A DNA stretch of 64,000 bases from Patescibacteria group bacterium (lineage in GTDB: Bacteria; Patescibacteriota; Patescibacteriia; 2-01-FULL-39-33). Where the stretch lies: positions 145,685-209,684 of the forward strand of contig JBAZKF010000001.1 of assembly GCA_041650895.1 (NCBI GenBank), read 5' to 3'. The notes below the pieces were generated by a model. That model made no database searches, had not been told where the DNA came from, and was given only the letters and a program-made list of their open reading frames with translations. The translations under genes were made by a program, and so were the position numbers. Below are positions 27,833 to 64,000 of this stretch, in pieces. Within the stretch, counting starts at the first letter, position 1; each line of letters opens with the position of its first letter.

Positions 27833-29251
27833 ATGACAAAAAAAATACTGCTAATTAACCCTGCCCAGTTTCAACCGATCGCCGCCAATCAGCCAGAAAT
27901 CTACGACAAAGAAATAGATTACCTGCCGTCATTGGGAATTTTATATTTGGCTTCCTATTTGAAAAAATTCGGTAATCATGAAATCAAAATTGCGGATTGC
28001 GGCGTAGAAAATATCAGTTACGACGGAATTGGCGATATCGCCAAAGATTTTAAACCGGATATAGTCGGTATAACCGCTTTAACTTTCGTCCTATTAGACG
28101 TCATAGCCATTATTAAAGCGATCAAAACGTCATTTCCCGGGACTTTAATCGTTCTAGGCGGTCCTCATCCGAATTTATACCCCAATGAAACCATTAACCT
28201 GCCCGGAGTGGATTTCATTGTCCTGGGCGAAGGCGAAAAACCGTTTAAGGAGTTGATTGATAATATTGATGATCGCGAAAAATTAAAAACAACACCTGGA
28301 TTGATCTTTAAACTTAATGGAGAAATAATCAACACCGGCCATTGCGAATTAATCAGCAATTTGGACGAATTGCCTTTTCCAGCTCGACAACTGACAAAAT
28401 ATGACAAGTATTTTTCTATCATCGCGCAAAAATCTCCGGTTACCACTATGTTCACTTCTCGCGGCTGTCCTTACCGCTGCCTGTTTTGCGATCGGCCGTA
28501 TTTAGGGAAAATTTTCCGCGCTCGCAGCGCCAAAAACGTCGTTGATGAAATGGCAGAGATTAAAAAAATGGGGATTGAAGAAATCTTCATCTATGACGAC
28601 ACCTTCACCATTAATCGCCAGAGAACTATCGACATTTGCCACGAAGTAATTAACAGAAAATTAGAAATCAATTGGGATATCCGCGCTCGCGTCAATACGG
28701 TTGATGAAGAGGTGCTTCACTGGCTAAAAATAGCCGGCTGCCGGAGAATCCATTTCGGCGTTGAAGCGGGAACTCAAAAGATACTTGATATACTCAAAAA
28801 AGATATCACGCTGGAGATGGTGGAAAAAGTAATCGGCTGGACAAAAAAAGAGGGCATTGAAACCCTCGCCTACTTCATGATCGGCAATCCTTCGGAAACC
28901 TTGGCCGACATTGAACAAACAATAGCATTCGCCAAAAAGATTGATCCGGATTATATTAATGTTTCTATTACCACTCCTTTCCCGGGCACCCAGTTATACG
29001 ATCAGGCTCTGGAAACAGGCATCATCAAAAGCGATGTCTGGAGGGAATTCGCGGCCAACCCTTCAACGCAATTCATTCCGCCGTTATGGACGGAGAATTT
29101 CTCCCGCGACGAGCTGATCGGCTTAATGCGTCAATTCTACGGTTCTTTCTACCGACGCCCCAAATATATCATCAAAAAACTTCTGGCCGTCAAATCCTGG
29201 GGCGAGTTAGTCAGAAAAGCCAAGGCCGGCTGGCAAGTATTAAAATTCTAA
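27833..29251 (+). CDS. cobalamin-binding (class B) radical SAM enzyme, paralog 1
   Basis: N-terminal Rossmann-like B12-binding region (KILLINPAQ...GILYLASYLKK...DIVGITA), DELPFPARQL, then TSRGCPYRCLFCD (CxxxCxxC) and the radical SAM TIM core. Confidence 0.9.
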   Translation: MTKKILLINPAQFQPIAANQPEIYDKEIDYLPSLGILYLASYLKKFGNHEIKIADCGVENISYDGIGDIAKDFKPDIVGITALTFVLLDVIAIIKAIKTSFPGTLIVLGGPHPNLYPNETINLPGVDFIVLGEGEKPFKELIDNIDDREKLKTTPGLIFKLNGEIINTGHCELISNLDELPFPARQLTKYDKYFSIIAQKSPVTTMFTSRGCPYRCLFCDRPYLGKIFRARSAKNVVDEMAEIKKMGIEEIFIYDDTFTINRQRTIDICHEVINRKLEINWDIRARVNTVDEEVLHWLKIAGCRRIHFGVEAGTQKILDILKKDITLEMVEKVIGWTKKEGIETLAYFMIGNPSETLADIEQTIAFAKKIDPDYINVSITTPFPGTQLYDQALETGIIKSDVWREFAANPSTQFIPPLWTENFSRDELIGLMRQFYGSFYRRPKYIIKKLLAVKSWGELVRKAKAGWQVLKF

Positions 29252-29254
29252 AAC

Positions 29255-30682
29255 CTATTTAAGGACGTTTTTAAAAATGTTAAGTCCCAGCAGAATATCT
29301 TTCAAGTCTGCCAGGGACTTGATTTTTTTTAGCCGATAAATAATATATTTCGGACGTAAATAAAACTTAATAAAGGCTTTGCGTTTTAATTTCAGCAGGG
29401 TATCACTGCTTAAATCGGGCAAATCCATCGGCGGTATATGATTGGAGACTGAACAAAAATCACTCCAATCAAAATCTTTCCTGATGTATCCGCGAGCCTT
29501 TGCTTCTTCATACATGGGAGTTCCCGGATAAGGAATGGCAACAAAAAAGGCTGCTGTGTCCAGATCCAAGCTACAAGCAAAATCAATCGTCTGATTAACC
29601 GTCCAAGGATCTTCGTCAATATAACCAATAATGAATGCTCCGGAAACCAAGATGTCGTTTTTACGGCATAAGTCAACGGCTATTCTAGCTTGTTCCAGTG
29701 TGGCGCCCTTGCACATCTTATCTAAAATTCTCTGCGAGCCCGATTCAAAACCAAAACCGATCCTTTTACAGCCGGCCCGTCTCATTAACTTGAGCATTTC
29801 ATTATTTACCGAATCAACTCTGGCCATAACCACCCAAGAGATATCCAGCTTCCGCCGGATAATCTCTTCACAAAATTCCTTCACTCTATCTTTATTAGCC
29901 GTAAAGAGTTCGTCATGGAAATTAAAAGAAGTAGCCTGGTAATTTTTCATGCATTCTTCAATCTCGGCCAAAACATTACTCACACTCCTAGTACGATAGC
30001 GCCTTTTCCAAACTGATTCCGCCATGCAAAAACCGCAACGATAAGGACAGCCGCGGCCGGATATGATATTAATCGCCTGCCCCGAGTCCGTCGTTCTGGT
30101 CGGCGGCAAGTAATACTTTTCAACCGGCAATAAATCACGAGCCGGGAACGGTATGGTATCAAGATTATCAATCAGCGGGCGGGGTTCTGTTATTAATATT
30201 TCAGCATTATCGCGATAAGCGATGCCTTTAATCACCCCGAAATCGACTTGCTCGGATATTAAGGCGCGGATTAATTCCAAAAAAGTGACTTCCCCTTCGC
30301 CCAAGACGCAAAAATCTATTGCCGGCATACCCCGCATTGTTTCTTCGGCGGCAATTGTCGGATGTGGCCCGCCGACAATGATTTTTATTGCGGGATTAAT
30401 GACTTTTATCCGCCGCGTAATTTCTTTGAGTTGTTTATAGACAGGCGTGGGGAAAGTCAAAGCGATAAATTGCGGCATGATTTCCTTAATCTTTTCATCT
30501 ATCTGATCATAGGACATTTCCAATGCCTCACCGTCAAGAATTGTTATTTCTACTTCCTGTTCATATTGGCGCAAATAAGCCGCCAGATAAGCCAAATTAA
30601 GCGGAGCGGTTTTCCCACCCTGCCCTTCGATACCGTCATAATTAGTGAAAGGCGGATTAATCAATAAAAGTTTATACTTCAT
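29255..30682 (-). CDS. cobalamin-binding radical SAM enzyme, paralog 2
   Basis: MKYKLLLINPP..., DTIPFPARDLLP, SGRGCPYRCGFC. Confidence 0.9.
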   Translation of the reverse strand: MKYKLLLINPPFTNYDGIEGQGGKTAPLNLAYLAAYLRQYEQEVEITILDGEALEMSYDQIDEKIKEIMPQFIALTFPTPVYKQLKEITRRIKVINPAIKIIVGGPHPTIAAEETMRGMPAIDFCVLGEGEVTFLELIRALISEQVDFGVIKGIAYRDNAEILITEPRPLIDNLDTIPFPARDLLPVEKYYLPPTRTTDSGQAINIISGRGCPYRCGFCMAESVWKRRYRTRSVSNVLAEIEECMKNYQATSFNFHDELFTANKDRVKEFCEEIIRRKLDISWVVMARVDSVNNEMLKLMRRAGCKRIGFGFESGSQRILDKMCKGATLEQARIAVDLCRKNDILVSGAFIIGYIDEDPWTVNQTIDFACSLDLDTAAFFVAIPYPGTPMYEEAKARGYIRKDFDWSDFCSVSNHIPPMDLPDLSSDTLLKLKRKAFIKFYLRPKYIIYRLKKIKSLADLKDILLGLNIFKNVLK

Positions 30683-31653
30683 AAGTCGGTCTTTTTAAAA
30701 AAATTCTTTACGGGTAAAAAAATAGCAATTAAAATTAATAAATAAGCGAGACTAAACAAATGTACTATGAAACCAGAAATAATAGACGCTTCCTTATTTA
30801 AGCCTAATAGTCCGAAGCTGATAGCCCAACCTGTTTCATAAGTTCCGAAGTCCCACAATCCCTGGATAGGCAAAAAACTTATTAATTGACTAAAAATCAA
30901 ACCCAGAGTTACTTTAAGCCAGTTAAAATCTATATTTAGGGCACGGAAAAAAACTACGATCATTAAAGAAGCGGACGCCAGCCACAAGAACGAAATCAAC
31001 AAATTAGTCAAGTAAACGGGCCAGGAACGAATTGTTTTGACGCTTGTTGCAACCTCTTCCAACTTAGTAGCCAGCTTAGCGCCAAATTGAAATTTAGTCA
31101 ATCTTGCCCAATGCATTAAAATAACAACCGCTTTAACCAGCCAATCAAGGTAGAATAATATGGCAATCGTGGCTAACCCAAGCATAAAACAGCTTAGATA
31201 GATTCTATTAGGCGGAATGTAGCCGGGGTTAAGCAAAATAAAACCGATCAGAAAAGAAAAAGCCACTGCCAAAAGATCAAAAAATCTGGCTACCAACAGG
31301 ACACTAAGCCCTTCTGCTATGGCTACATTCTCACGTTTTTTTATGAAATAAACAAAACTTAACTCACCGCTTCTAAACGGCATTAAATTACAAAAAAAAG
31401 TATAACCCAAAGTAATTTTCAAGGAACTCAAAAAACTTATTTTCTTAGAAAGAATCAAGACTTGCCAGCGCCAAGCCCGCAAACAAACGCCGATAAAATA
31501 AAAAATAAACGCGATTAAAGCGTAAGTCCATGATATATTTGAAATAATATCCCTGGCTTGAGTGAAATCAATCTGAGTTAAAAGCAAACACAATAAAATT
31601 ATGGTTACGGCCAAGGAGATTGTTTTTTTGCGCTTGGTTATCTTTTTCAACAT
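30679..31653 (-). CDS. UPF0104 / LPG-synthase-TM-like flippase-like membrane protein
   Basis: 324 aa with eight TM helices. The N-terminus MLKKITKRKKTISLAVTIILLCLLL...LRAWRWQVLL is characteristic of this family, which is commonly paired with polyprenyl-phosphate GT2s. Confidence 0.6.
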   Translation of the reverse strand: MLKKITKRKKTISLAVTIILLCLLLTQIDFTQARDIISNISWTYALIAFIFYFIGVCLRAWRWQVLILSKKISFLSSLKITLGYTFFCNLMPFRSGELSFVYFIKKRENVAIAEGLSVLLVARFFDLLAVAFSFLIGFILLNPGYIPPNRIYLSCFMLGLATIAILFYLDWLVKAVVILMHWARLTKFQFGAKLATKLEEVATSVKTIRSWPVYLTNLLISFLWLASASLMIVVFFRALNIDFNWLKVTLGLIFSQLISFLPIQGLWDFGTYETGWAISFGLLGLNKEASIISGFIVHLFSLAYLLILIAIFLPVKNFFKKTDL

Positions 31654-33488
31654 TATTTTATCAAGTTAAGAAACCACATCTTGCCGGGACTGGTTTCAGC
31701 TTCTATTATTCCCGCCTGAGGCCAATCGACAATGTTTATCGCTTGGCTACTGGAGGAAATCTGCCCCGCTAATTCAGCATCATAACCAATTATATATTTT
31801 ACATTATAAACGTCAAAAGCCGACTGAAGTTTTTGCTCCTGCAATAAATGGTTGATAGTATTCGGAGAAAAATAGACAGTTGATACTCCGGTTAAATAAT
31901 TCAACAGAGGATGCAATGACCTATTGCCTACGGCCACCGCCTCTTCCGGTTTGATGGCGACACCCCAAGAACTGATTTGCTCAGCTGAATAAGCAATTTT
32001 CAAATTTATATTATTATCATATCCCCGGCCCCAATAGACATGATTAGCCTGGACTAAGCCATAAATGATTAAAAGAATAATCACCCCGCCGGCCAGCCGA
32101 CTAAATCTCTTTGCAACATAATAATCGCTGATCATCTTAGCTAAGCTCATCAAGCCCAGACTGATAAAAAGAGCAATCACCCAACCCCAATCCATTAAAT
32201 GATTGCGTGAGGCCAGAACGACGTAACTGGAAATAAAAATAGAAAACACCAGCCAACTGACAAAAAGATTGGTTAGATTCTTGTCTCGACGACTCAAGTC
32301 TTTAATACCCAATAACATTAAAATAAAAAACAGTGATCCGCCAATATACTCCAAGGCGAGAAATCGAGAAAGATGCGCCAGCAGATTATTGGATCCGACA
32401 AGAGCCCGCTCCGCCAAATTGATGGGGCGTATGCCGATATTGGCCCCCACCTTAATCAAGTCAATGCTCTTCAATAATCCTCGACCAGCTATGTCGGAAT
32501 TAAATTTGTCTAAAACCGTTTTCTGATCAAAATAAAAAGTATAGGGATCGGGGAAAAGATGGCCGTAAAAATTAAACTCAGACCAATTATTGGTTTGCGT
32601 CTCGCTGGCAAAAAACACCCTGAAATAATCATTATTACCGCTAAAACCGAATATCGCCGGCAACCAGAAAAAAGCTAATATTACAAAAAAAGGAACAAAC
32701 ACCAAACTGATGTTTCCAAGACTGCTTTTGACGGCATTGTTCCTTAAACCGGTTAAGACGGTTTTAAAACGTAACCAAATCAATCGGAAAAAAGACAAAT
32801 CCGTACGGGAATCGATAATAAGGGGTTGCTCTGAGGACTGAAAAATCAACCAAAAAAATAAAACTGGCGGAAATAAGAACATCACTTCCCGCGACAGGCA
32901 AGCTAGCGACAAAAAGACTCCGGACAAAGGCAGAAAAAAATATCTGCCCTTGACTTTACGGCCGATAAAAAACAAAACGCAAAAAACTGAAAAATACAGC
33001 ATCGCGAATTCGTAGGTGCCGATAGTTTGAACCATCTGGGAATTAAACGGCAATAAGATATAAACCAAAGAAAATATTGCGGCTATTTCCCAATCAAACA
33101 AATAAAACACGACGGCCGCAAATAAAACCAAAGCCAATGCCTGAATAATTACGGCAATGACTATTAAAGTGTTGAAATCTGGCAAGCCGATCAACTGAAA
33201 TAATGCAGCATAAGACCAGGTAGTAAACTTATTGCCCTGGGTACTGAGCTGAGCCCGCTGGCTGACTAAAGACGGCGCCAAAACGACATTGCGGCTGTCC
33301 TCCATGCCGTAAACCCCCGTTTGGACAAGATTCCTGGCCAAAATAAAATTCTCCGCTTCGGCCGGTTGGGCAGTACTGCCCTTAAAAAAAACCGGAAAAT
33401 ACCAAAAACCGGCTGCAACAAAAAAAACTACGGGCAATAAAACAAAAAGAATCGAGCTCTTAAACCTAAAATTTGGCTGTTGCGACAT
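31653..33488 (-). CDS. large polytopic membrane protein, unknown function (candidate GT-C-like glycosyltransferase or polymerase)
   Basis: 611 aa with more than 12 TM helices and a C-terminal soluble region of about 150 aa. No recognisable motif. Confidence 0.5.
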   Translation of the reverse strand: MSQQPNFRFKSSILFVLLPVVFFVAAGFWYFPVFFKGSTAQPAEAENFILARNLVQTGVYGMEDSRNVVLAPSLVSQRAQLSTQGNKFTTWSYAALFQLIGLPDFNTLIVIAVIIQALALVLFAAVVFYLFDWEIAAIFSLVYILLPFNSQMVQTIGTYEFAMLYFSVFCVLFFIGRKVKGRYFFLPLSGVFLSLACLSREVMFLFPPVLFFWLIFQSSEQPLIIDSRTDLSFFRLIWLRFKTVLTGLRNNAVKSSLGNISLVFVPFFVILAFFWLPAIFGFSGNNDYFRVFFASETQTNNWSEFNFYGHLFPDPYTFYFDQKTVLDKFNSDIAGRGLLKSIDLIKVGANIGIRPINLAERALVGSNNLLAHLSRFLALEYIGGSLFFILMLLGIKDLSRRDKNLTNLFVSWLVFSIFISSYVVLASRNHLMDWGWVIALFISLGLMSLAKMISDYYVAKRFSRLAGGVIILLIIYGLVQANHVYWGRGYDNNINLKIAYSAEQISSWGVAIKPEEAVAVGNRSLHPLLNYLTGVSTVYFSPNTINHLLQEQKLQSAFDVYNVKYIIGYDAELAGQISSSSQAINIVDWPQAGIIEAETSPGKMWFLNLIK

Positions 33489-33497
33489 AATTTAGAG

Positions 33498-34586: not shown

Positions 34587-34589
34587 AAA

Positions 34590-35546: not shown

Positions 35547-35550
35547 AAAA

Positions 35551-36975
35551 TTACGACGGTTTCCTGTGACCTTTAAATAATTTAGGAATCGCCCTTAGCA
35601 ATTTTCGCCATAAAACTTGCGGAGCGTATAACAGTAAAAAATACGCCATCTTCAATCTGAATATAGTCGGACTTTTCGGTATCTTAAAAACAGCAGAGTA
35701 TGATTCAGTGGATAAATTAGCTATTTTCCAAGCCTTCAACCGATCCTTAGCGCTAAAATCAGCGGTTTCAAAAATCGGAATAATCTTATCCCCTGTTTTG
35801 GAAAAATGGCGGCCGAGCGCAAAATCATTCAATAATTTACCATTGTTTTTAACCCAGTCCCATAACTCCGTATGAGGATAGGGAATCAAAAAATTCCACT
35901 TAATGCCGCCGTTTAATTTTAATTGATCAAAAAACTTCACTGTTTCCCTGGTATGTCTAAGATTATCACCGGGTAGGCCGACAATAAAAAATCCCGTAAC
36001 TTTGATGCCGCTTCCCATTAATATTTTAGTGGCCCTGACAATATCTTCTAGTTTCTCACCTTTTTTTATCCGATCAAACACTTCAGGCACGCCGCTTTCT
36101 ATGCCTAAGGAGACATGACGGCAACCAGACTCATACATAGCAACGGAAAGTTCTTGGGTAATCCTGTCGGCCCTGACGCCATTGGGGCAGCCCCAGACAA
36201 GCTCCAATTTTTGGCCGGCTAATGACCGGCAAAATTGCAAAGCCCGGTTGATATCCATAGTGAAATTATCATCAACCAGTTCAAAGCTATTTATCAGGTA
36301 TTTCTCCTTGGCCAGAACTAATTCTTTAATAATATTTTCTACACTTCGGGATCTCCAATTGCGCCCACTGACAAATTTAACCGAACAATAAACGCAGTTG
36401 TAAGGACAGCCGCGGCTGGTTAGAAGCGGATAAGGTCGATCTTTAAAATATTCCCGAGGATCCAATTCTGAAAAATGATCATAATCGGGAAAACTTAATT
36501 TATCCAAATCAGTAACAAAAGAATAATGATTAACCCGGCATTCGCCACCGACTCGGTAAACCAACCCGGGAACTTCGTTGATTTGCTTTTTGCCGGATAG
36601 AAAATCAAAAAAAAGCGGCAAGGACTGTTCGGCCTCAAACTGCAAGCCATAATCAATATCGGGATTCGTCTGCAAATATTCCACCCCCAATAAACTGACA
36701 TGGGGTCCGCCGACGATAATTAAACTGTCAATCTTGCCTTTTAATTCGGCAATAAAATCGCCAATTACCGCTACGTTAGTAGACTTTACGGAGAAACCCA
36801 AAACTCTGGGATTAATTGCAATAATAAAATCTTTCAAATGATCAGGCGACCAAGCCAAAAAGTTCAAATCAATAATGTTAAAAGAGAGGCGCCCGGCAAG
36901 CGAACCGCCTAAATAGGCCAAGCCATTATTGATGTATTTATTTGTCCCCCTAACTTCAATAAGCAACAAATCCAT
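35551..36975 (-). CDS. cobalamin-binding radical SAM enzyme, paralog 3
   Basis: DKLSFPDYDHF then TSRGCPYNCVYCS; B12-binding-like N-terminal region. Confidence 0.85.
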   Translation of the reverse strand: MDLLLIEVRGTNKYINNGLAYLGGSLAGRLSFNIIDLNFLAWSPDHLKDFIIAINPRVLGFSVKSTNVAVIGDFIAELKGKIDSLIIVGGPHVSLLGVEYLQTNPDIDYGLQFEAEQSLPLFFDFLSGKKQINEVPGLVYRVGGECRVNHYSFVTDLDKLSFPDYDHFSELDPREYFKDRPYPLLTSRGCPYNCVYCSVKFVSGRNWRSRSVENIIKELVLAKEKYLINSFELVDDNFTMDINRALQFCRSLAGQKLELVWGCPNGVRADRITQELSVAMYESGCRHVSLGIESGVPEVFDRIKKGEKLEDIVRATKILMGSGIKVTGFFIVGLPGDNLRHTRETVKFFDQLKLNGGIKWNFLIPYPHTELWDWVKNNGKLLNDFALGRHFSKTGDKIIPIFETADFSAKDRLKAWKIANLSTESYSAVFKIPKSPTIFRLKMAYFLLLYAPQVLWRKLLRAIPKLFKGHRKPS

Positions 36976-36983
36976 AATAATAA

Positions 36984-38213: not shown

Positions 38214-38216
38214 AGT

Positions 38217-39551: not shown

Positions 39552-39561
39552 TGTTTTAATA

Positions 39562-41058: not shown

Positions 41059-41096
41059 GAATATTTAAAAATTATAAAACCGATTTAATGTGTTTA

Positions 41097-41125
41097 ATTA
41101 TAACAGAAAATACACAATTAATCAA
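41097..41125 (-). promoter_or_regulatory. internal promoter within the minus-strand super-operon (TTGATT, 17 bp, TGTTATAAT extended -10)
   Basis: Reverse complement reads TTGATTAATTGTGTATTTTCTGTTATAAT. The -35 overlaps the GT9 stop codon (41122-41124). It would drive paralog 4 and the genes downstream. Confidence 0.45.
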
Positions 41126-43670: not shown

Positions 43671-43671
43671 A

Positions 43672-49050: not shown

Positions 49051-49068
49051 AATAGAAAATACTAAAAA

Positions 49069-49764: not shown

Positions 49765-49768
49765 AATA

Positions 49769-50425: not shown

Positions 50426-50434
50426 TTTTGCCGT

Positions 50435-54775: not shown

Positions 54776-54779
54776 AATA

Positions 54780-55514: not shown

Positions 55515-56589
55515 AGGCTTTTTTGATATTAACGACTAAATTTTTAATACTATAAGAAGCTACGACAATGCGACGCAACTCAACAGCCATAACCTGCTTC
55601 TCGGATGAATCCAATTCAGACAATTTCTTTATTTTGACCGCCAATTCCCGACTGTCAGCTTTTTCCAATAATAACAAATCTTGGTAGTCGCCCAGGATCA
55701 CGGAAAAAGTTTGATTATAAACTACGGCCGGCACGCCACAGGCCAACGATTCCAAAACCACTTTGTCCAATCCCCCGGTGGGGCACAAGTTAATGCTTAA
55801 ATCGGCTTGCTGATAATAATAAGGCAGGTCCTTATTGGGGATATTGCCTATCCAATCAATATAATCTTCCAGTCGGCGTTTTTTTATTTCCTCTTTCAAT
55901 AAGGCAGCGTATCTCAAACCATCAAGATTCGGCGGTGAGCCGATAAAAGACAAGGTGATATTTTTTATTCCTAATTCATGCACCAAAATATCAACAGCTT
56001 TAATCAATAATAATTGATTTTTTATTTCGCTGATCCGGCCGACGCTGACGATTTGTAATTTATCCTGTCGAGCCGTCGCCCAATCTTTAAGACAGAATTT
56101 ATCAATATCAATGCCATGGCCGACGATTTTCACTTTGGCACTAGCAAGCCGGAAACTTTCGGGCGAGGCGGTAAAAATAATATCAGCCAACAATTCAGCT
56201 AATCTTAATTTAAAATTAACCGCTTTATGCGCATACCAGAGGCCGATAATTTTGCCCTGCAAACGCCAGATCAAACCAGCCAGAATGACATAAACAACAT
56301 TCATGTGAACAAAAACAGCATCATAATCATGGCGAACCAACCATAAATATTTATAAAAACGCCACAAGTAACGCCAACGCGACGGCCTGTCTTCCTTGCC
56401 CAAAGATAAAACCCTGACATTGGCAGGCAAATCATACTTACCTTTATATAGGCAGATAACAGTCACTTGAGAAAAATTATTGGCAAACTCTTTAAGCCAA
56501 TCATGAAAAAATCCCAACAGACCGTCGGCGTCATCCACTTTCTGAGTCAAGATTAATAATTTCAATTTTTTATTTTTTGGCAATGGCAT
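55498..56589 (-). CDS. glycosyltransferase family 4
   Basis: KVVLESLACGVPAVVYN near the C-terminus; about 363 aa. Confidence 0.75.
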   Translation of the reverse strand: MPLPKNKKLKLLILTQKVDDADGLLGFFHDWLKEFANNFSQVTVICLYKGKYDLPANVRVLSLGKEDRPSRWRYLWRFYKYLWLVRHDYDAVFVHMNVVYVILAGLIWRLQGKIIGLWYAHKAVNFKLRLAELLADIIFTASPESFRLASAKVKIVGHGIDIDKFCLKDWATARQDKLQIVSVGRISEIKNQLLLIKAVDILVHELGIKNITLSFIGSPPNLDGLRYAALLKEEIKKRRLEDYIDWIGNIPNKDLPYYYQQADLSINLCPTGGLDKVVLESLACGVPAVVYNQTFSVILGDYQDLLLLEKADSRELAVKIKKLSELDSSEKQVMAVELRRIVVASYSIKNLVVNIKKAYGEEN

Positions 56590-57172
56590 ATAAATTCAAA
56601 CCTAATTCGAAGCTGCCGCCGGTGATTTTATCGGCCGCAAAGCCGGTGGCGGAAAACTGTTTAAATAATTCCTGTCGACTATAGAACTGCTGATGCTCAC
56701 CGATCTCATCCGGTGAAACTATTTTAAACGCGGCCAATAACGACAGCAGACCCTTAGTTTTTCCCCAGGGAGTCGTCACTATAAGCAACCCGCCGGGAAC
56801 AAGCGCTCGATAAGATTGAGCCAGAATATTTAAAGCCGCGGTTTCATCCAAATGTTCCAAAACTGCCAGCATGGTTACAACATTAAAACAACTGGGACTG
56901 ACCGGCAAATTATCGCCGGTTTTGAATTCGTATTTTTTTAAGCTAACTCCGTCGATCATTCCTTCGCTGACCGATTTATCCAATCCGACTTTGGCCGAAA
57001 ACTTAACCTGCGCCAAAAAATAAGGATAAGAACCGCAGCCGATATCAAGAATAGCTCCCGACCTTAAATCAGCAGGAATCAACCTGTCAACTTTATTAGC
57101 CCGACGCCGGGCCAAGTATTTCTCTAAGACGCCATACCCCCTGGTAGGAGCGGCGGAACCGGTTATTTCCAT
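56570..57172 (-). CDS. class I SAM-dependent methyltransferase
   Basis: ILDIGCGSYPY and VVTMLAVLEHL. Confidence 0.8.
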   Translation of the reverse strand: MEITGSAAPTRGYGVLEKYLARRRANKVDRLIPADLRSGAILDIGCGSYPYFLAQVKFSAKVGLDKSVSEGMIDGVSLKKYEFKTGDNLPVSPSCFNVVTMLAVLEHLDETAALNILAQSYRALVPGGLLIVTTPWGKTKGLLSLLAAFKIVSPDEIGEHQQFYSRQELFKQFSATGFAADKITGGSFELGLNLYAIAKK

Positions 57173-57858: not shown

Positions 57859-57873
57859 AAAAATAATTAATAT

Positions 57874-59346
57874 TTAATCGCGTTTAGTATTGATGTCCGG
57901 AGATTTAGGCAAGAAAAAAGAGACTAAAGCCATAAAACCATCAAACAAAATTTTTATATCGTCTAATGATCTAATGCTAAAAATCTTCTTAAGGATGAAT
58001 TTCGGACGAAAATAAAAACTGCGATACATGATTTTATATAAATTCTTTATTTCTTCCGCTGAAAGATTCTCCAATCTCATAACCGGCTTAGCCAAATTAA
58101 AATCATCCCAATTTTCGCTCAACAACAAATCACGTTCCTTGGCCCAATTAAACATGGCCGTGCCGGGAAACGGCGTAGTAATATTGACGATCAGCAAATC
58201 GGGATTTATTTTCTTAACAAAACGGATGTTCTTTTCAATCACTTGGCGACTGTCGCCGGGATTGCCGACCATGAAAGCCAGACGGCATTCTATCCCCGCC
58301 TGCTTAGTCCATTTGACGGCATTGATCACTTGCGGCAAATTGATTTTTTTATTGATATTCTTCAATACGGCCTCATCAACATTTTCCACCCCATACATGA
58401 TCTGATGACAACCGGCGTCTGACATTTTCCGCAACATGGCCTCGTCAACATAATCAACTCGGGCAAAACACGTCCAAGACAAATCCATTTTATTTTTTAT
58501 CAGCAGATCGCACAAGTCAATGACGTTCTGACGAAAAACAGTAAAAGTATCATCATAAAACATGATCTGCCTGATACCGTAATTATCGGCCAAGTATTTT
58601 ATCTCGGCAAAAATCCCGGTGGCCGACTTAAAGATCATCTGATCACCCAAGGTTTTATTGCAGAAAGTGCAACGCCCCGGACAACCTCGGCTAGTCATTA
58701 AACTCATGGCCGGCAACTTCTTATACGAGCCCTTAGCCGGCCGATATTTATCAATCGGCAATAAATCATAAGCCGGCAAAGGCAGATCATCCAAATTGGC
58801 AATCCGCCGACGCGGCGCGTTACGGATTATTTGTTTTTCGCCATTCAATTCTTTCTTATAAACCACGCCGTCAATCTCTTCAATCTTCTTGCCGGATAAT
58901 ATTTCTCCCAAAGTAATCTCCCCTTCGCCGATAACCACCGCATCAACAAATGGTTGATTAATAACCTCATCAGTAACAAAGGTTGCATGAACGCCACCGA
59001 AAATAATCAAAGCATTAGGATAATATAATCGGCAAATTTCCGCCGCCTGATAAGCCTTTTTAATTTGTCCGGTGGTGGCAGTAAAGCCGATCACTCTAAT
59101 ATCCCTGTGATGATCAACAAAATTTTCCTTTAGATAATCGCCGAAGGCCTGGACCGAGGGGCAGGAAACTTCACAATCAATTATCTCTACACTTTGATCC
59201 TGTTGACGGACATAGCCGGCAATGGAAGCCAGCCCCAAAGGAGGGAAATTTGAGTTAATCTCACGCCAAATATTATTCTCATCGCCATAATAATCAGGCG
59301 GAGCGATCAACAAACAATCCAAATTTTTTTGATTATCTTGCGACAT
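57874..59346 (-). CDS. cobalamin-binding radical SAM enzyme, paralog 9
   Basis: DDLPLPAYDLLP, TSRGCPGRCTFCNKTL. Confidence 0.9.
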   Translation of the reverse strand: MSQDNQKNLDCLLIAPPDYYGDENNIWREINSNFPPLGLASIAGYVRQQDQSVEIIDCEVSCPSVQAFGDYLKENFVDHHRDIRVIGFTATTGQIKKAYQAAEICRLYYPNALIIFGGVHATFVTDEVINQPFVDAVVIGEGEITLGEILSGKKIEEIDGVVYKKELNGEKQIIRNAPRRRIANLDDLPLPAYDLLPIDKYRPAKGSYKKLPAMSLMTSRGCPGRCTFCNKTLGDQMIFKSATGIFAEIKYLADNYGIRQIMFYDDTFTVFRQNVIDLCDLLIKNKMDLSWTCFARVDYVDEAMLRKMSDAGCHQIMYGVENVDEAVLKNINKKINLPQVINAVKWTKQAGIECRLAFMVGNPGDSRQVIEKNIRFVKKINPDLLIVNITTPFPGTAMFNWAKERDLLLSENWDDFNLAKPVMRLENLSAEEIKNLYKIMYRSFYFRPKFILKKIFSIRSLDDIKILFDGFMALVSFFLPKSPDINTKRD

Positions 59347-59351
59347 AGCTT

Positions 59352-61559
59352 TTAAAGGAATCGACTAAAAAACGCTCTGAATCCGTCACTGGTCAACAAC
59401 CATAAATAGTCAACCAAAACAATAACGATAACGACCGCAACCCGACTCGGCCAGCGGTAAAAATATTTTCTTAACCCGTTAACGGCCAACAAGGTTAATA
59501 GCAAAGCCAGGACAAAATACAAACGAGATGACACACCGGTCCAAAGCAAAAACATAAACGACGGCAGAATCAGGCACTTAACCAGGAACCTCTGATCGGC
59601 GGTAAACTCCCGCCATTTAATCAATCCTAACGGCACCAAAAGCCAAGCAGCCAGATAAACGCCGACGATACTCTTAACAACAAAAAACGGCTGATATTCG
59701 GAACCGCTGGGAGCGCTAATGCCCAGTTTATACCAATCCAAATATGAATAATGATAAATGAAATAAACCACGATTTGCCAAGCGATTAAGGGCAAGCCGA
59801 CCGCTAAGGTTGATAAAAATAATTTTTTGAGTTTTTCGGCTCGAGGCAGTTGCGGATGGAAACATATCACCAGATACAGGAAAGCCATACCCAAACTGCT
59901 ATATTCTTTCCATAACATGCCAACAACAACCATCAACGAAGTTAAAAATAAATTAAAGTTGTTAGGCCGTTTATAAAATCTAATGACGCCGATAGCGGCC
60001 AAAACCCAGAATAATTGGGCGCCCGACTCGGTAAACAAATCCAAGCCATACTTAAGTAACGGATAGGAAGAAATATAAATCAACGCTCCCAGAAGCGCCA
60101 TTCCTCTATTTTTAAAAAACAAATAAAATAAAACGTAAACGGCTAAAGCCAAAAAAACATAAAATATAATCGCCTCTATCTCAAAAGCTAACGATAGATT
60201 GCCACCGGTTAAAAACGACAGTCCGGCAATACCCATAGGCCCCAACGGTTTTAAAATTCTGGAAGGAAAACTCTCCGCCATTTGTCCCATAAACAGCTTA
60301 GCCGTTTCCATATACTGATAAGCATCGCCGTTAATGCTAAAACCGACAAAATTGAGCCGAATAAACACGTTCAACGCTACCGCGGTTAAGATTAAAAGAA
60401 TCGGCCAAAAATGATTATTGGTCGACTTGGTCGGCCGGCACTTTTTGTCTATGGCTGTTTGCCAGCTTTTCAGATAAAGCGCCAAATTTTCCTCTCGGCC
60501 GGGCAAAATGTTAATCGCCGATTCGGCCGACTGGCTGAGTTGCCGGCGCAAGCCAATATTCTGAATAATCTTTTTCATGGCGTCAGCTAATTTTTCTTCG
60601 TCGCCAACGGGCGTGATTAATGCGCTGACTCCGTCTTTCAACACCTCACCGGCGCAACCGACATCAGTCATCACTACCGCCAAACCGCAACTGGCGGCTT
60701 CTATTATCACCATCCCCCAACCCTCATAATCAGAACTCAAAACATAACTATCGGCTGAGTTGTAATAATCATAAATATTGTCAGTCCAACCGATCAAAAA
60801 GATTTTATCCTCCAAGCCGGATTCTTTTATTTGTTGGGCGAGTTTGTCTTTTTCCGGACCGCGACCGACTATAAGCAAAACCGCCTCCGGCAATTGCCGG
60901 GCAACCGTGGCGAAAGCTCTGATCAGCAACGGCAGATTTTTCTGTTTTACCAATCGAGCCATAGTCAAAAAAACAGTTTTGCCGACTAAGCGGCCGAAAA
61001 TCTCCGGCTTAGTTTCGCTGAATTGCTTCTCGGGCTTAACATAGACAGGAACAACAACAATTTTATCTTCGGCTATATGCAAATCATTAACCAAAGTATC
61101 CTTTATCCGCTCACTGACTGCGCGCACGCTGTCGGCTCGCTTAATCAGCCAGCGCCCCAGATAATAACGGCAAAAGTTAATAGGATTTTCATTGCGCCAA
61201 TAAGTCGCGCTAAAAAAATCGCCATGTTCCTGAATATTCAAAGCGCTCTTGAATTTCCTAGCCAGCAATAATCCCATCAGCGACAATTCAAAAGGATCTT
61301 GAACCGTTATGACATCATAATTATTCTGGCGGAACAGTTTTTTCGCTAACCGATACATATTGAATAGTGCCGCTAATCGGTTGCCGCCACCCGTGCCGTA
61401 AGCCGTTACTTTTTCTGATAATTTAATTTCTTGCGCTGGCGTAGCGGGCACGATAATATCATAAGCGTCCGTCATAACGCCATACTCAATCAAACGCCGA
61501 GTTACGGGTGATGAGGAAACGAATACGCCTTTATCGGTGCCTAAGTTTAATACTTTCAT
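59352..61559 (-). CDS. fusion: N-terminal GT4 glycosyltransferase (about 370 aa) plus C-terminal polytopic membrane domain (about 360 aa)
   Basis: DYEGWGMVIIEAASCGLAVVMTDVG (GT4 EX7E region) at about aa 280-305. From about aa 375 onward there are 10-11 TM helices (WPILLILTAVALNVF ...). Confidence 0.75.
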   Translation of the reverse strand: MKVLNLGTDKGVFVSSSPVTRRLIEYGVMTDAYDIIVPATPAQEIKLSEKVTAYGTGGGNRLAALFNMYRLAKKLFRQNNYDVITVQDPFELSLMGLLLARKFKSALNIQEHGDFFSATYWRNENPINFCRYYLGRWLIKRADSVRAVSERIKDTLVNDLHIAEDKIVVVPVYVKPEKQFSETKPEIFGRLVGKTVFLTMARLVKQKNLPLLIRAFATVARQLPEAVLLIVGRGPEKDKLAQQIKESGLEDKIFLIGWTDNIYDYYNSADSYVLSSDYEGWGMVIIEAASCGLAVVMTDVGCAGEVLKDGVSALITPVGDEEKLADAMKKIIQNIGLRRQLSQSAESAINILPGREENLALYLKSWQTAIDKKCRPTKSTNNHFWPILLILTAVALNVFIRLNFVGFSINGDAYQYMETAKLFMGQMAESFPSRILKPLGPMGIAGLSFLTGGNLSLAFEIEAIIFYVFLALAVYVLFYLFFKNRGMALLGALIYISSYPLLKYGLDLFTESGAQLFWVLAAIGVIRFYKRPNNFNLFLTSLMVVVGMLWKEYSSLGMAFLYLVICFHPQLPRAEKLKKLFLSTLAVGLPLIAWQIVVYFIYHYSYLDWYKLGISAPSGSEYQPFFVVKSIVGVYLAAWLLVPLGLIKWREFTADQRFLVKCLILPSFMFLLWTGVSSRLYFVLALLLTLLAVNGLRKYFYRWPSRVAVVIVIVLVDYLWLLTSDGFRAFFSRFL

Positions 61560-61567
61560 CTCAATAA

Positions 61568-63013
61568 TTATTTAGTAATAAATTTCTTGGCCAATTTAAA
61601 TTCCACCGGCCAGAAAAAAAATTTCAATTTCCAACGCAGTTTACATAAACAAATAAAACAGAATTTGAGTAATTTATTGGAAGAGACAGTTGAATTCATC
61701 GCGCTCTTGAATGACAAGGCGCCGAATCTGACATAGGCCTCCATTGATTCCACAAAGTCCTTGTCCTTAACCCAAGGAAAATTCTCTACTGACATGTAGC
61801 TCAACTCGTTCTCTGAAACCTTTTTCCATTCCTCAAGCGACTGCGGTTCCCGCCAGCCGGCCTTGACGCATTCCTCATATAACTCTGATCCGGGGTAGGG
61901 GCGAAACGCTTGAGGGCCCAAAATCTGGACCTCGTCGCTTAAGGCGATTAAGCGATCAATCAACCTCAGGGTTTCCTGCATATCACTCCGCGACTCGCCA
62001 GGCAAACCAATCATGAATGAATACTGAGGTATGATGCCATGCTTGAGGCAGGCCTTAGCGGAAGCGACTATGTCATCGGCGGTAACGTCTTTTTTGATCA
62101 TTTTTAAGATACGGCTACTGCCGGATTCGGCGCCGAAAGACAACAAATAACAGCCGGACTGCTTTAACTTGGCTAAAAGTTCATCATCCACCATCCCCGG
62201 CTTAAGGTAATCGGCGCGAATAGTGGTTTCCCAAGGCAAAACCAGATCTTCCCTAATCATGCCGTCAATGATCGCCTTAGCGCGGCTGATATCCACAAAA
62301 AAGTTCTCGTCCCAAAAACGCAATTTCTTGCCCTGGAAATACTCCTTGGCCTTAATTATCCGTAAATCCTCAAGCACCTGCTCGGTCGTCCGAGCGCGCC
62401 AATGATTTTTCAAAATCGCATTAATGCAAAAAGTACAACGATGCGGACAACCGCGCGAAGTTAGAGAAGGAATCAAATATAGATGCTCTCTGATTTCCTG
62501 AGGCACTAAATCCCAATTAAATAACGGCATGGCTTGGGGTTGATGCAGGGGTTGCGGCTGATTGACAATAACTCTCCCGTCAGCGCAATAAGCGAGGCCT
62601 TTGATTTCTGCCAGGGATCGGCCTCGCGCCAACTGCAACATGGTTTCTTCGCCTTCGCCGATAACTACTATATCAATCAGCGGATTTTTGGCTGTCTGCT
62701 CAATAAAAAAAGTCGGATGCGATCCGCCCCAAACAATTTGGGCGGCGGGATTGATTCTTCTGGCCAACTCGGAGATTTTCAAGGCATTGGAGATCTGCAT
62801 GGTCATAACTGAAACACCGATCAAATCAAAATCCTTAATCGCTTGCTCCAATAAGCTCAAATAATCCTTCTGCCTGACGCCGTCTATCATCTTGACCTCC
62901 ACTCCTTGACTATCTAAGTAGGTGGCAATACTCAACAAACCGACAGAAATAGAGCTGTCGTAATTATCTTTAACTATATTAAATTCGGGATTGATCAGTA
63001 AAACTTTTTTCAT
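61568..63013 (-). CDS. cobalamin-binding radical SAM enzyme, paralog 10 (most divergent)
   Basis: MKKVLLINPEF, QAMPLFNWDLVP, TSRGCPHRCTFCINAI. Confidence 0.85.
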   Translation of the reverse strand: MKKVLLINPEFNIVKDNYDSSISVGLLSIATYLDSQGVEVKMIDGVRQKDYLSLLEQAIKDFDLIGVSVMTMQISNALKISELARRINPAAQIVWGGSHPTFFIEQTAKNPLIDIVVIGEGEETMLQLARGRSLAEIKGLAYCADGRVIVNQPQPLHQPQAMPLFNWDLVPQEIREHLYLIPSLTSRGCPHRCTFCINAILKNHWRARTTEQVLEDLRIIKAKEYFQGKKLRFWDENFFVDISRAKAIIDGMIREDLVLPWETTIRADYLKPGMVDDELLAKLKQSGCYLLSFGAESGSSRILKMIKKDVTADDIVASAKACLKHGIIPQYSFMIGLPGESRSDMQETLRLIDRLIALSDEVQILGPQAFRPYPGSELYEECVKAGWREPQSLEEWKKVSENELSYMSVENFPWVKDKDFVESMEAYVRFGALSFKSAMNSTVSSNKLLKFCFICLCKLRWKLKFFFWPVEFKLAKKFITK

Positions 63014-64000
63014 TGCATTTTTTTCAATAAATCAACGGTTTGATCCACTGTCTGCCGCCAAGAAAAATCTTTCAGCTTGACTGTTGCCGCTTCGGTCAGC
63101 TTTTGAGCCAAAGGACGGTCAGTCAATAGTCGGAAAATCGCTTCAATTAATTGTTTTTGATTATTGTAGTTTACCAGCAAGCCGTTCTGGCCGTCTGTAA
63201 TAACCTCGGGATTGCCGCCGACGTCAGTGGCGATTACCGGCGCCCCGGCTTTTATGGCTTCCAATAATGTATGGGACAGGCCTTCATAATTGGTGTTTAA
63301 AACAAAAACATCGGCGTGACTGAAATATTCCAAAACTTTTTCATGCGGTACGCGATCAAGAAACTTTATTTGCTCGGCCAGTTTCAAAGACTGAGCCAGG
63401 TTCTGCAGATTCTCTAACTCCGGACCATCGCCCAAAACGATCAAATAGGCCCGACCCAAACGCTTGATGATTTCCGGCATCGCCCGGATTAATTGATCCA
63501 CGCCCTTCCATTTGGTTAACCGGCAAGCCGTCATAATTATGGAACCGTCGTTAGGCAGATTAATGGGGGCTGATTTATTAACGCTAACCTCATCGCCAAA
63601 ATCAATCGCATTATATATGACATTTATTTTGGCTAAGTCAACGCCGATCAGCTTGGCCAAATCGCCCATAAAATTGCTGACGGCAATAATCGCATCGGCT
63701 TCCAATAATATCCGGCGGCGACGCGCTTTCATTCTTTCAATTTGTTGATTATAAATATTCTTTTCAAAGTCGGTGATGTAATCGGTTGTCCAGCCGTTAG
63801 CGGTGGCTGTTTCCCAGGCGGCATCGCCGGCAAACCTGACTAAATATTTTTTCTTGGTTATTTTTTTTATCAAATTGGCAAACCAGCCGACACTGTAGAT
63901 ATCGGTTACATAAATCAGGTCGGCGTTAAAAGACAGGAAAAGCATAGCCAAAAAATAATGCAACCGACTGAAAACTTTATTTTTTGCCACTCGATAAACG
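63010..64000 (-). CDS. glycosyltransferase family 4 (N-terminus probably beyond the right edge)
   Basis: YEGLSHTLLEAIKAGAPVIATDVGGNPE in the C-terminal domain. The visible N-terminal portion looks mid-domain, so the true start is likely past position 64000. Confidence 0.7.
   Translation of the reverse strand, partial: VYRVAKNKVFSRLHYFLAMLFLSFNADLIYVTDIYSVGWFANLIKKITKKKYLVRFAGDAAWETATANGWTTDYITDFEKNIYNQQIERMKARRRRILLEADAIIAVSNFMGDLAKLIGVDLAKINVIYNAIDFGDEVSVNKSAPINLPNDGSIIMTACRLTKWKGVDQLIRAMPEIIKRLGRAYLIVLGDGPELENLQNLAQSLKLAEQIKFLDRVPHEKVLEYFSHADVFVLNTNYEGLSHTLLEAIKAGAPVIATDVGGNPEVITDGQNGLLVNYNNQKQLIEAIFRLLTDRPLAQKLTEAATVKLKDFSWRQTVDQTVDLLKKMQ

Follow-up and report, generated by a model that had tools for sequence, protein, structure and literature searches.

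The 64,000-nucleotide stretch of a Patescibacteria group genome analyzed here (contig JBAZKF010000001.1; hereafter the window) contains, from about 19.2 kb to past its end at 64 kb, a locus of at least 45 kb in which ten genes for radical SAM enzymes with a B12-binding domain (B12-rSAMs; R1 to R10) lie among 16 genes of glycosyltransferase (GT) type. The best explanation of this arrangement is a chromosomal locus for a complex cell-surface glycan (a polysaccharide, a glycolipid, or a protein-linked oligosaccharide) of its host, a Buchananbacteria-like bacterium of the candidate phyla radiation (CPR). Counting all chemistries together, we judge it probable that the enzymes carry out radical tailoring of glycan intermediates; the narrower proposal, in which the intermediates are polyprenyl-linked and methylation is the main chemistry, falls slightly short of an even chance. 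The proposal draws on soluble enzymes with intact catalytic cysteines, purifying selection, cassette-like variation, orthologs in glycan loci of other phyla and of archaea, fusion proteins, the topology of a GT-C enzyme joined to a radical SAM (rSAM) domain, and two biochemical precedents, GenD1 and HpnJ.

A first-pass annotation of this DNA had called ten cobalamin-binding radical SAM genes, and we found all ten open reading frames (ORFs) at the 5′ ends it gave, the "start" of the nine minus-strand genes being the high coordinate. Hidden Markov model (HMM) searches recovered both domains in every enzyme above the Pfam thresholds: B12-binding (PF02310) with 40.7 to 89.9 bits (cutoff 32.1) and Radical_SAM (PF04055) with 61.7 to 109.8 bits (cutoff 29.5). 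The CxxxCxxC cluster motif is intact in all ten, and R210, G211, C212, P213, C216, and C219 are invariant in their alignment, which contains the annotated LP.PA.DLLP-type motif as well as GGPHPT and GEGE. For R6 we prefer the ATG at 45021 to the GTG at 45207 that opens the longest ORF, because its N-terminus aligns with the other nine enzymes from there. R8 carries an additional C-terminal MetW-like class I methyltransferase (MT) domain; its orthologs are mostly unfused, at about 495 residues. An AlphaFold2 model of R2 (pLDDT 91.2) adopts the class B two-domain fold. The ten enzymes have the class B radical SAM architecture, and their use of cobalamin is predicted. Hydropathy analysis found no genuine transmembrane (TM) helix in any of them, so they should be cytoplasmic.

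The density of these genes, ten per 36 kb, is far above chance. The first-pass annotation had called them paralogs of one family, which suggests expansion in place, and here the data speak otherwise: mutual identity is only 23 to 37%, and each of the ten scores higher (in bits) with some member of a sample of 126 external enzymes than with its best paralog in the window. The best external identities were 58% for R1 (a metagenome locus, L015), 51% for R2, and 43% for R6. Recent tandem duplication was ruled out by this low mutual identity and by the nearer relatives on unrelated contigs. As judged from these alignments, the ten enzymes are ten old, distinct subfamilies and not a local expansion. 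R2 has hundreds of relatives at 45 to 52% identity, distributed over Elusimicrobia, Omnitrophota, Planctomycetota, Dehalococcoidia, Acidobacteria, other Parcubacteria, and Woesearchaeota, and a profile of the ten enzymes matched 44,069 clusters (50% identity) at E ≤ 1e-30.

The remaining genes (Table 1) place the enzymes in a setting of glycan assembly, as had been annotated. Profile searches confirmed the neighboring families named before (GT2, GT4, GT9, Wzx, LPG_synthase_TM, CE4 deacetylases, class I MTs, and two enzymes of radical SAM/SPASM type) and added genes absent from that list, namely the priming transferase at 23051, which exceeds the TIGR03025 cutoff, a FemAB-like enzyme, a GtrA-like protein at 22525, and an epimerase/dehydratase. 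Besides the B12-rSAMs and GT-type genes, the inventory comprises three flippase types, two CE4 deacetylases, class I MTs (three as separate genes, one as part of a fusion), and two more radical SAM enzymes. Between 27833 and 64000, where three stand-alone MTs and two CE4 deacetylases had been counted, we find two and one, respectively; the third MT (25307) and the second deacetylase (25998) lie upstream. The presence of a priming transferase implies that the chain is started on polyprenyl phosphate. Parts of a second route are present in the short GT2s, the GtrA-like and MprF-flippase-like proteins, and the GT-C (PMT_2) enzymes. The short GT2s align over their full length with PpgS, AglJ, and ArnC, with scores below the cutoffs.

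The locus consists of two convergent gene blocks and one short divergent block. Its first gene is probably the GT2-like gene at 19258; minus-strand genes fill 19258–22992 and diverge from the gene at 23051, and the plus-strand genes of 23051–29251 converge on an unbroken series of 27 minus-strand ORFs that runs from 29255 to the end of the window. The earlier picture of a single super-operon on one strand does not hold, as R1 lies on the plus strand. R1 and R2 converge at 29251/29255 with 3 nucleotides between their stop codons, which leaves no space for a terminator between the blocks. The packing is tight, as had been claimed, with a looser limit than the 10 nucleotides given: minus-strand gaps are mostly 18 nucleotides or less, with one exception of 63 nucleotides (41058/41122). 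The frame of the final GT4 (63010 onward, minus strand) is open to base 63999 and continues beyond the window, so that the locus is truncated here.

Related loci elsewhere show how these genes are maintained and exchanged. An independent metagenome-assembled genome (MAG) of the Buchananbacteria holds a locus (L002) in full synteny with the window at 74 to 91% amino-acid identity. For seven radical SAM and four other genes, dN/dS between the two was 0.04 to 0.09 (approximate, as dS was near or above 1), which indicates purifying selection on these genes. A second Buchananbacteria locus (L003) has the same overall frame as the window's locus and lacks GT2c and R7 together. The GT-C/radical SAM fusion next to the missing pair is only 52% identical there, a different B12-rSAM stands in place of R9 and MT2, an additional B12-rSAM is inserted, and the locus terminates with an MT at the position of R3. 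By comparison of the two sequences, these differences amount to cassette-like variation. Variation of this kind is typical of O-antigen and capsule loci.

Farther afield, an R2 ortholog (about 50% identity) in Elusimicrobia (L007) lies in the gene order MT-rSAM-GT2-rSAM-GT2-?-GT4-WecG, with RmlC, DegT, epimerases, and Wzy_C nearby, and another (about 50%) in a Woesearchaeota archaeon (L008) is accompanied by a GT2, a second B12-rSAM, an MT, DegT, a hexapeptide transferase, GFO_IDH_MocA, NeuB, PMT_2, and LPG_synthase_TM. Another Patescibacteria contig (L092) has the order GT4-rSAM-GT4-rSAM-GT4-MT, of which the second rSAM is an R8 ortholog (62%), with two PMT_2 genes and a total of four B12-rSAMs in 21 kb. 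A metagenome scan with the R2 orthogroup alignment and generic patterns yielded 80 loci, a sample of the wider family and not of R2 orthologs in particular; they were annotated with home-made HMMs, and GT frequency among them is descriptive, without a matched random-gene control. Among the 44 loci of at least 10 kb, 30 had at least one GT, 21 had at least two B12-rSAMs, and 7 had at least three. The 82 metagenome B12-rSAM genes adjoined another B12-rSAM in 24 cases, a GT2 in 17, and an MT in 9. The densest locus (L015) packs seven B12-rSAMs into 18 kb; at 11246–16240 it also encodes a 389-residue thiamine pyrophosphate (TPP) enzyme (POR_N + TPP_enzyme_C), a HAD hydrolase, a hexapeptide transferase, and a radical SAM/SPASM enzyme. 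Its TPP enzyme may belong to the phosphonopyruvate- or sulfopyruvate-decarboxylase type, in which case it would hint at phosphonate- or sulfonate-decorated glycans. Taken at the level of gene content, the locus has relatives in other CPR bacteria, in Elusimicrobia, in DPANN archaea, and on many metagenome contigs, and it appears to be an extreme member of a widespread, uncharacterized locus type. The locus is thus not unique, and its relatives are likewise uncharacterized.

Fusion proteins link the same activities covalently. The 854-residue protein encoded at 45035–47599 joins a GT-C (PMT_2) enzyme to a radical SAM/SPASM domain. In its AlphaFold2 model (pLDDT 84), a basic N-terminus precedes ten hydrophobic helices, an invariant CDWHPP lies in the first outer loop, and the radical SAM/SPASM domain follows the tenth helix. 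Hydropathy and charge suggest that both termini lie inside, so that the radical SAM domain would be cytoplasmic and the conserved GT-C loop would face outward. A fold search with the radical SAM/SPASM domain returned generic SPASM/twitch relatives only (SuiB, SkfB, anSME, DesII, BlsE, viperin). Homologs come in four forms: PMT_2 (about 470 residues), GT2+PMT_2 (about 700), PMT_2+rSAM+SPASM (about 850), and GT2+PMT_2+rSAM+SPASM (about 1080). In a scan of one genome per species, the fusion was found only in Patescibacteria MAGs, with the best match (81% identity) in Candidatus Buchananbacteria, a Parcubacteria group within the Patescibacteria group. In a Saccharibacteria-labeled MAG (L004 10004–12518, GC 0.34), PMT_2 and radical SAM/SPASM are adjacent separate ORFs of 459 and 386 residues, so the window's fused form is one of several arrangements.

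Larger combinations appear among the top matches of the ten-enzyme profile, which include giant proteins that string together two to four B12-rSAM modules, in some cases after a radical SAM/SPASM module. The 1879-residue protein P0276 has the order B12-rSAM, MT, GT2, MT, GT2, B12-rSAM. Stop-codon reassignment was ruled out for it, as its frame has no internal TGA, TAG, or TAA and is uninterrupted under the standard code. Beside it (L093 8596–13362) lies an ORF of at least 1589 residues with an MT and three GT4-like domains that reaches the contig end; with a GC content of 0.54, the contig does not resemble a low-GC CPR genome. A B12-rSAM is joined to a class I MT in at least two cases: the R8 group and P0239, whose identity to R8 is just 29%, so that its fusion may have arisen independently. 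A radical SAM/SPASM enzyme lies repeatedly beside or fused to B12-rSAMs (L010 8989–11422, L076, L014, L015, L020, L054), including in GT-free clusters of Dehalococcoidia (L010) and of a GC-rich contig (L076), and P0273 and P0275 (about 2300 residues) begin with rSAM-SPASM and continue with three to four B12-rSAM modules. We conclude that the fusions GT2+GT-C+rSAM/SPASM and B12-rSAM+MT+GT2+MT+GT2+B12-rSAM tie these enzymes to lipid-linked sugar chemistry. Within the window, two neighboring triads combine the same modules, MT1-GT2c-R7 followed by the GT-C/radical SAM fusion, and R9-GT2d-MT2. The fusions, together with conserved triads elsewhere, support a coupling of GT2, MT, and B12-rSAM, and it is on these that the modularity proposed in the first-pass annotation can stand; the alternation of GT and radical SAM genes on which it had been based is no better than in random shuffles of the same 27 genes (permutation, P = 0.15 and 0.19).

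We propose the following scheme. The chain would be primed on polyprenyl phosphate, lengthened by the soluble GT2, GT4, and GT9 enzymes, and flipped by Wzx. The short GT2s would make side-branch sugars as polyprenyl-phosphate monosaccharides, which the adjacent class I MTs, B12-rSAMs, and the radical SAM/SPASM domain would tailor in the cytoplasm; GtrA-like or MprF-like proteins would then flip the tailored sugars, and GT-C enzymes would transfer them outside. The remaining B12-rSAMs may work on the growing lipid-linked oligosaccharide or on nucleoside diphosphate sugars. Each radical SAM enzyme would serve one particular sugar or position before flipping, using the 5′-deoxyadenosyl radical to functionalize an unactivated C–H bond, with C-methylation via methylcobalamin as the leading candidate chemistry. 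Class I MTs would O- or N-methylate these sugars, and the CE4 deacetylases and the FemAB-like enzyme would remodel amino sugars. The expected product is a strain-variable, heavily alkylated surface glycan.

Several observations weigh against this scheme. Gene order by itself gives no signal of GT–rSAM pairing. An ortholog in Dehalococcoidia (L010, 45%), a homolog in Acetobacterium (L091, 34%), and the GC-rich L076 lie in GT-free contexts; the Acetobacterium and Dehalococcoidia homologs were dropped as cultured glycan models for lack of a glycan context. The window yielded no Wzy polymerase, chain-length regulator, or acceptor: Wzy_C, Wzz, and Wza gave no matches there, and two membrane domains (31653–33488 and the C-terminus of 59352–61559) have no confident family. 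Cobalamin synthesis is not known in CPR bacteria, and no cobalamin uptake genes are visible in the window. None of the ten enzymes reaches the NCBIfam cutoff of a characterized enzyme, and the best family scores belong to non-methylases: HpnJ (TIGR03471), the top curated family for R1, R3, R7, R9, and R10, at 88 to 252 bits (best R1, cutoff 577.6), and BchE (TIGR02026), with a best score of 243 bits (R2, cutoff 481.35). The top PDB fold for the R2 model is AprD4 (E = 2.7e-28, TM 0.75/0.78), a cobalamin-free enzyme, with MgmA/QCMT, TsrM, OxsB, CysS, and TokK at TMq 0.67 to 0.74. According to the literature, neither sequence nor structure tells the non-methylating members of the family from the alkylating ones (PMC12931638).

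These scores bear most directly on the alternative that, in the same locus and on glycan substrates, most of the enzymes perform non-methylating radical sugar chemistry, such as ring contraction to carbocycles as by HpnJ, dehydration of diols to deoxy sugars as by AprD4, epimerization, oxidation, or C–C coupling, some perhaps cobalamin-independent. AprD4, which dehydrates a diol on a sugar ring without binding cobalamin (2026 B12-radical SAM review, PMC12931638), is also the PDB entry whose sequence the ten-enzyme profile matches best, the four class I MT domains already provide ordinary methylation, and a cobalamin-free mechanism would suit an organism of minimal biosynthesis. The HpnI-HpnK-HpnJ triad moreover has a comparable set in the GT2, CE4, and B12-rSAM genes of the locus. 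HpnI is a GT2 that puts HexNAc on the lipid, and HpnK is the deacetylase that frees the amine. Against the alternative, the AprD4 match covers the radical SAM half only, whereas matches to QCMT (9CCB), OxsB, TsrM, CysS, and TokK include the B12 domain; the N-terminal domains score well over the PF02310 cutoff; and no gene for an AprD3-like reductase partner adjoins any of the ten. Every functionally characterized B12-rSAM group contains C-methyltransferases (PMC12931638). Cobalamin binding has no known diagnostic sequence motif, cobalamin-free look-alikes exist, and the largest group of the class B family is still unexplored (PMC12931638). We regard predominantly non-methylating chemistry as rather unlikely, and C-methylation, which the first-pass annotation had offered as an example of the product, as plausible but unproven and as one possibility among several, given HpnJ and BchE similarities far under cutoff and AprD4 as the best fold.

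The enzymes could instead act on something other than sugar. A lipid target, with methylation, cyclization, or cross-linking of a polyprenyl carrier or of acyl or alkyl chains in a glycolipid anchor after the manner of HpnP/HpnR, Tes/GDGT-MAS, and other lipid-modifying radical SAM enzymes, would accord with partial matches to a ladderane-lipid B12-rSAM family (143 bits or less) and to HpnR, with weak matches of the radical SAM/SPASM domains to Tes and GDGT-MAS, and with the MprF-type flippase domain and several membrane proteins of the locus; the list of lipid-modifying radical SAM enzymes is reportedly growing, as told in a 2026 review. We consider it improbable because all lipid-family scores are far under cutoff and below those of HpnJ and BchE, the locus has no lipid-synthesis genes, the covalent partners are GT2, class I MT, and GT-C domains and not lipid enzymes, and one lipid would hardly accommodate ten distinct specificities. 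Little more can be said for a protein or peptide target, either a glycan-receiving S-layer protein, pilin, or secreted protein, or a peptide synthesized ribosomally and modified post-translationally (RiPP), on the model of QCMT, Mmp10, or the proteusin enzymes PoyB and PoyC, to which we give a low probability. QCMT is the second PDB match, the RiPP enzyme ApyD ranks with the best partial NCBIfam matches (up to 192 bits, cutoff 750), SPASM-type radical SAM enzymes are mostly peptide maturases, and PMT_2 enzymes can glycosylate proteins. The gaps, however, are too small to hold a precursor-peptide gene; no RiPP recognition element, protease, or RiPP-type exporter was found among the locus genes; the fusion partners are GT2 and MT domains; and known peptide systems need one or two iterative enzymes (PMC9204698), as opposed to ten divergent ones. 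A RiPP cluster was dropped for the lack of a precursor-sized gap and of RiPP accessory genes. That the locus is an assembly or binning artifact, or a decaying, non-functional island, is hardly credible: although the source is metagenome-assembled, exact-protein look-ups for R7, R9, R10, and one GT4 gave no match, and one for R8 gave a 6-kb contig, R2 and R8 are identical to NCBI entries "MAG: radical SAM protein [Patescibacteria group bacterium]" from a 957,791-bp contig, the independent L002 MAG shares the gene order with the low dN/dS given above, the catalytic cysteines are all intact, and GC is even over the locus.

Glycan tailoring, the reading we prefer, has partial counterparts among known systems. 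The HpnI-HpnK-HpnJ pathway, which builds the bacteriohopanepolyol side chain, shares with the locus the gene types GT2, deacetylase, and a B12-domain radical SAM enzyme remodeling a lipid-linked sugar, in the case of HpnJ by ring contraction of a lipid-linked glucosamine (PMC9204698). It differs in that none of the ten is HpnJ by score and in its hopanoid lipid, whereas here a polyprenyl phosphate carrier is proposed, there are no hopanoid genes, and there are ten enzymes against one. GenD1, GenK, Fms7, and MoeK5 share the architecture of B12 domain plus radical SAM domain and act on glycosylated intermediates; GenD1 C-methylates a sugar of the assembled pseudotrisaccharide after the GenD2, GenS2, and GenN steps (PMC4340712). 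In that pathway an oxidoreductase, an aminotransferase, and a class I N-methyltransferase act ahead of GenD1, and the Woesearchaeota locus L008 has a comparable set (GFO_IDH_MocA, DegT, MT, B12-rSAM). These enzymes provide single tailoring steps in actinomycete antibiotic clusters, unlike the ten in a Wzx/polyprenyl CPR glycan locus; GenD1, GenK, and MoeK5 are likened to the ten by description. AprD4, the radical SAM 1,2-diol dehydratase of the apramycin pathway, resembles the ten in its sugar-ring substrate and in being the best match of both the R2 fold and the profile, but it uses no cobalamin, its N-terminal domain is unaligned with the profile, and its family (NF033070) is matched with at most 130 bits (R1) against a cutoff of 500.

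The three-component systems GtrA/GtrB/GtrV, ArnC/ArnT, and CsbB/GtcA/YfhO share short GT2s, GtrA-like or flippase-like proteins, and GT-C (PMT_2) enzymes with the locus, in which a GtrA-type protein (PF04138, 112.9 bits) and a GT-C enzyme (PF13231, 33.4 bits) were both found; for the short GT2s as makers of polyprenyl-phosphate sugars, the likeness to PpgS, AglJ, and ArnC stays below cutoff, and fused GT2+PMT_2 relatives speak for that role. Those systems transfer an unmodified sugar, whereas here a GT-C enzyme is fused to a cytoplasmic radical SAM/SPASM domain, its relatives are also GT2-fused, and the GT2s of the locus are flanked by B12-rSAM and MT genes. Wzx-dependent heteropolysaccharide loci share a priming transferase, Wzx, and many GT2 and GT4 enzymes, and both the priming transferase and a MOP-type Wzx flippase are present here. 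In XrtA/PEP-CTERM exopolysaccharide loci, the associated families resemble the deacetylase and FemAB-like pair, but all three XrtA models stay under cutoff: TIGR03013 for the priming transferase (369.7 bits, cutoff 393.35), TIGR03006 for the deacetylase at 25998–26837 (188.6, cutoff 276.2), and TIGR03019 for the FemAB-like enzyme. Scanning of the window ORFs revealed no exosortase, Wzy, Wzz, or Wza. Characterized Wzx-dependent and XrtA loci contain no radical SAM enzymes, unlike the locus described here.

Table 1. Genes of the locus with window coordinates, strands, and supporting matches.
Gene or product	Coordinates	Strand	Evidence
GT2-like, 350 aa	19258-20310	-	NCBIfam GT2 partial matches, all below cutoff
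Short GT2, 220 aa, PpgS-like	20705-21367	-	NF058614 165 bits (cutoff 370), full length
NAD-dependent sugar-nucleotide epimerase/dehydratase	21371-22411	-	TIGR01181-like, 110 bits, below cutoff
GtrA-like small membrane protein, polyprenyl-P-sugar flippase type	22525-22992	-	PF04138 (cutoff 26.1)
Priming polyprenyl glycosylphosphotransferase	23051-24400	+	TIGR03025 376 bits (cutoff 295.55)
GT2, two C-terminal TM helices, GtrB/ArnC-type	24414-25292	+	PpgS/PgfS/ArnC partial matches; hydropathy
Class I SAM methyltransferase MT0	25307-26011	+	NCBIfam methyltransferase matches, below cutoff
CE4 polysaccharide deacetylase + DUF3473	25998-26837	+	PF01522 64.8, PF11959 96.2 bits
FemAB-like acyl/aminoacyl transferase	26785-27828	+	PF13480, PF02388; TIGR03019 184 (cutoff 260.35)
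R1	27833-29251	+	472 aa; PF02310 83, PF04055 94 bits
R2	29255-30682	-	475 aa; PF02310 + PF04055
LPG_synthase_TM/flippase-like	30679-31653	-	PF03706 111 bits; TIGR00374 53.5 (cutoff 43.2)
Polytopic membrane protein, 611 aa; possible GT-C	31653-33488	-	about 10 hydrophobic helices; sub-threshold PMT_2, E = 0.0019
Radical SAM without B12 domain, 362 aa	33498-34586	-	PF04055 54.7 bits; SPASM/twitch-like; full-length partial matches to AhbD, NirJ2, PapB
GT2, 318 aa	34590-35546	-	PF00535 100 bits
R3	35551-36975	-	PF02310 40.7, PF04055 76.6 bits
GT4	36984-38213	-	PF00534 108.5 bits
Wzx-type (MOP) flippase	38217-39551	-	PF01943 61.1 (cutoff 28.2), PF13440 57.4 bits
R4	39562-41058	-	PF02310 82.1, PF04055 61.7 bits
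GT9 (heptosyltransferase family)	41122-42258	-	PF01075 62 bits
R5	42255-43670	-	PF02310 77.3, PF04055 91.5 bits
R6	43672-45021	-	PF02310 44.1, PF04055 83.9 bits
GT-C (PMT_2) + radical SAM/SPASM fusion, 854 aa	45035-47599	-	PF13231 33.4 (cutoff 26.1), PF04055 85.1, PF13186 30.4 bits
R7	47611-49050	-	PF02310 89.9, PF04055 89.6 bits
Short soluble GT2 (GT2c), 231 aa	49069-49764	-	PF00535 122.7 bits; AglJ/ArnC/PpgS partial
Class I SAM methyltransferase MT1	49769-50425	-	PF13489, PF08241
GT4	50435-51577	-	PF00534 91.8 bits
R8	51550-53709	-	719 aa; PF02310 57.2, PF04055 109.8, PF07021 72.2 bits
GT4	53696-54775	-	PF13692, PF00534
CE4 deacetylase, IcaB/PgaB-like	54780-55514	-	PF01522 95.8 bits; TIGR03933 109, below cutoff; N-terminal TM/signal segment (hydropathy)
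GT4	55498-56589	-	PF00534 74 bits
Class I SAM methyltransferase MT2	56570-57172	-	PF13489 50.8 bits
Short soluble GT2 (GT2d), 231 aa	57163-57858	-	PF00535 111.7 bits; AglJ/ArnC/PpgS partial
R9	57874-59346	-	PF02310 65.2, PF04055 74.9 bits
GT4 + C-terminal polytopic membrane domain, 735 aa	59352-61559	-	PF00534 138.9 bits
R10	61568-63013	-	PF02310 75.7, PF04055 78.1 bits
GT4, 5′ end beyond window	63010-64000	-	PF00534 148.4 bits

The 735-residue protein in Table 1 has a C-terminal part of 355 residues (about 380 to 735) with some seven to eight hydrophobic helices, for which Pfam gave nothing even at E ≤ 1; an unrecognized polymerase, ligase, or exporter domain is conceivable. The locus is flanked by housekeeping genes (MetRS, TatD, a gene of the MurA/EPSP-synthase family, and two tRNAs), and GC content is uniform over the region, which together indicate chromosomal DNA and no obvious foreign island. 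The tRNAs, tRNA-Val(CAC) and tRNA-Ala(CGC), lie at 18201–18351 on the minus strand, about 0.9 kb ahead of the first GT gene; Rfam and ARAGORN scans of the window returned only these two and nothing relevant within the locus. Close to the locus are a 449-residue PEGA-domain protein with weak β-propeller matches (3722–5071, plus strand) and a 620-residue ORF with no Pfam matches (6758–8620, minus strand), both of which may be surface proteins and candidate glycan acceptors. At 13303–15209 (minus strand), a LUD-domain + 4Fe-4S protein lies beside a CCG-domain protein, a pair that recalls LutB/LutA of lactate utilization in a genome expected to be metabolically minimal. The window opens (3–2111, minus strand) with a helicase-like ORF that has a GSGKT Walker A motif and continues past the window start; its GC content is 0.52, compared to about 0.42 for the remaining window.

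A full-text literature search, mostly without subscription journals, turned up neither an account of glycan loci with many B12-radical SAM enzymes, in CPR bacteria or any other group, nor a characterized polysaccharide locus that matches this one, in line with the first-pass annotation. The text of the 2026 B12-radical SAM review contains none of the words glycan, polysaccharide, glycosyl, and sugar. The only partial mention is in a preprint on giant proteins of Omnitrophota (10.64898/2026.06.07.730766), which reports a Pfam module that unites radical SAM domains with those of glycosyl transferase group 1 in very long proteins, the same kind of fusion as seen here; it is a domain catalog that proposes no function and mentions neither B12 domains nor glycan tailoring. 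Two other leads were dropped: the Kuenenia paper behind a methylated S-layer glycan of anammox bacteria (a lead that also drew on a GC content of about 41%) makes no claim of a radical SAM gene cluster, and the source here is a CPR bacterium; the paper on the Leptospira rfb locus contains nothing on Fe-S, cobalamin, B12, radical, or oxidoreductase. The component families are all known, and radical tailoring of sugars is known in a few natural-product pathways. We tentatively suggest, as something well short of established and somewhat less probable than its opposite, that ultra-small symbiotic CPR bacteria and DPANN archaea, and other uncultured anaerobes, diversify their surface glycans by a general, so far undescribed mechanism in which B12-type radical SAM enzymes act on polyprenyl-phosphate-linked sugars, with GT2, MT, and radical SAM modules together installing C-alkyl or other radical modifications sugar by sugar.

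If this is true, glycan tailoring would be the role of a large part of the orphan class B radical SAM enzymes, which number tens of thousands, and the surfaces of these organisms would depend on cobalamin from hosts or neighbors. The locus and its relatives give the orphan class B enzymes a testable context, lipid-linked glycan assembly, and the natural fusions show which enzymes to study jointly. Radical C–H functionalization of sugars has so far been known only in a few antibiotic pathways and one hopanoid pathway; in primary surface glycan assembly, it would open a new way to diversify sugars. At least 4 to 5% of the sequence is given over to the locus in a genome of about 1 Mb (the 957,791-bp contig being taken as the genome), and this share, together with ten putatively cobalamin-requiring enzymes, points to a glycan that is central in the episymbiotic lifestyle and to a possible dependence of the CPR bacterium on cobalamin derived from its host.

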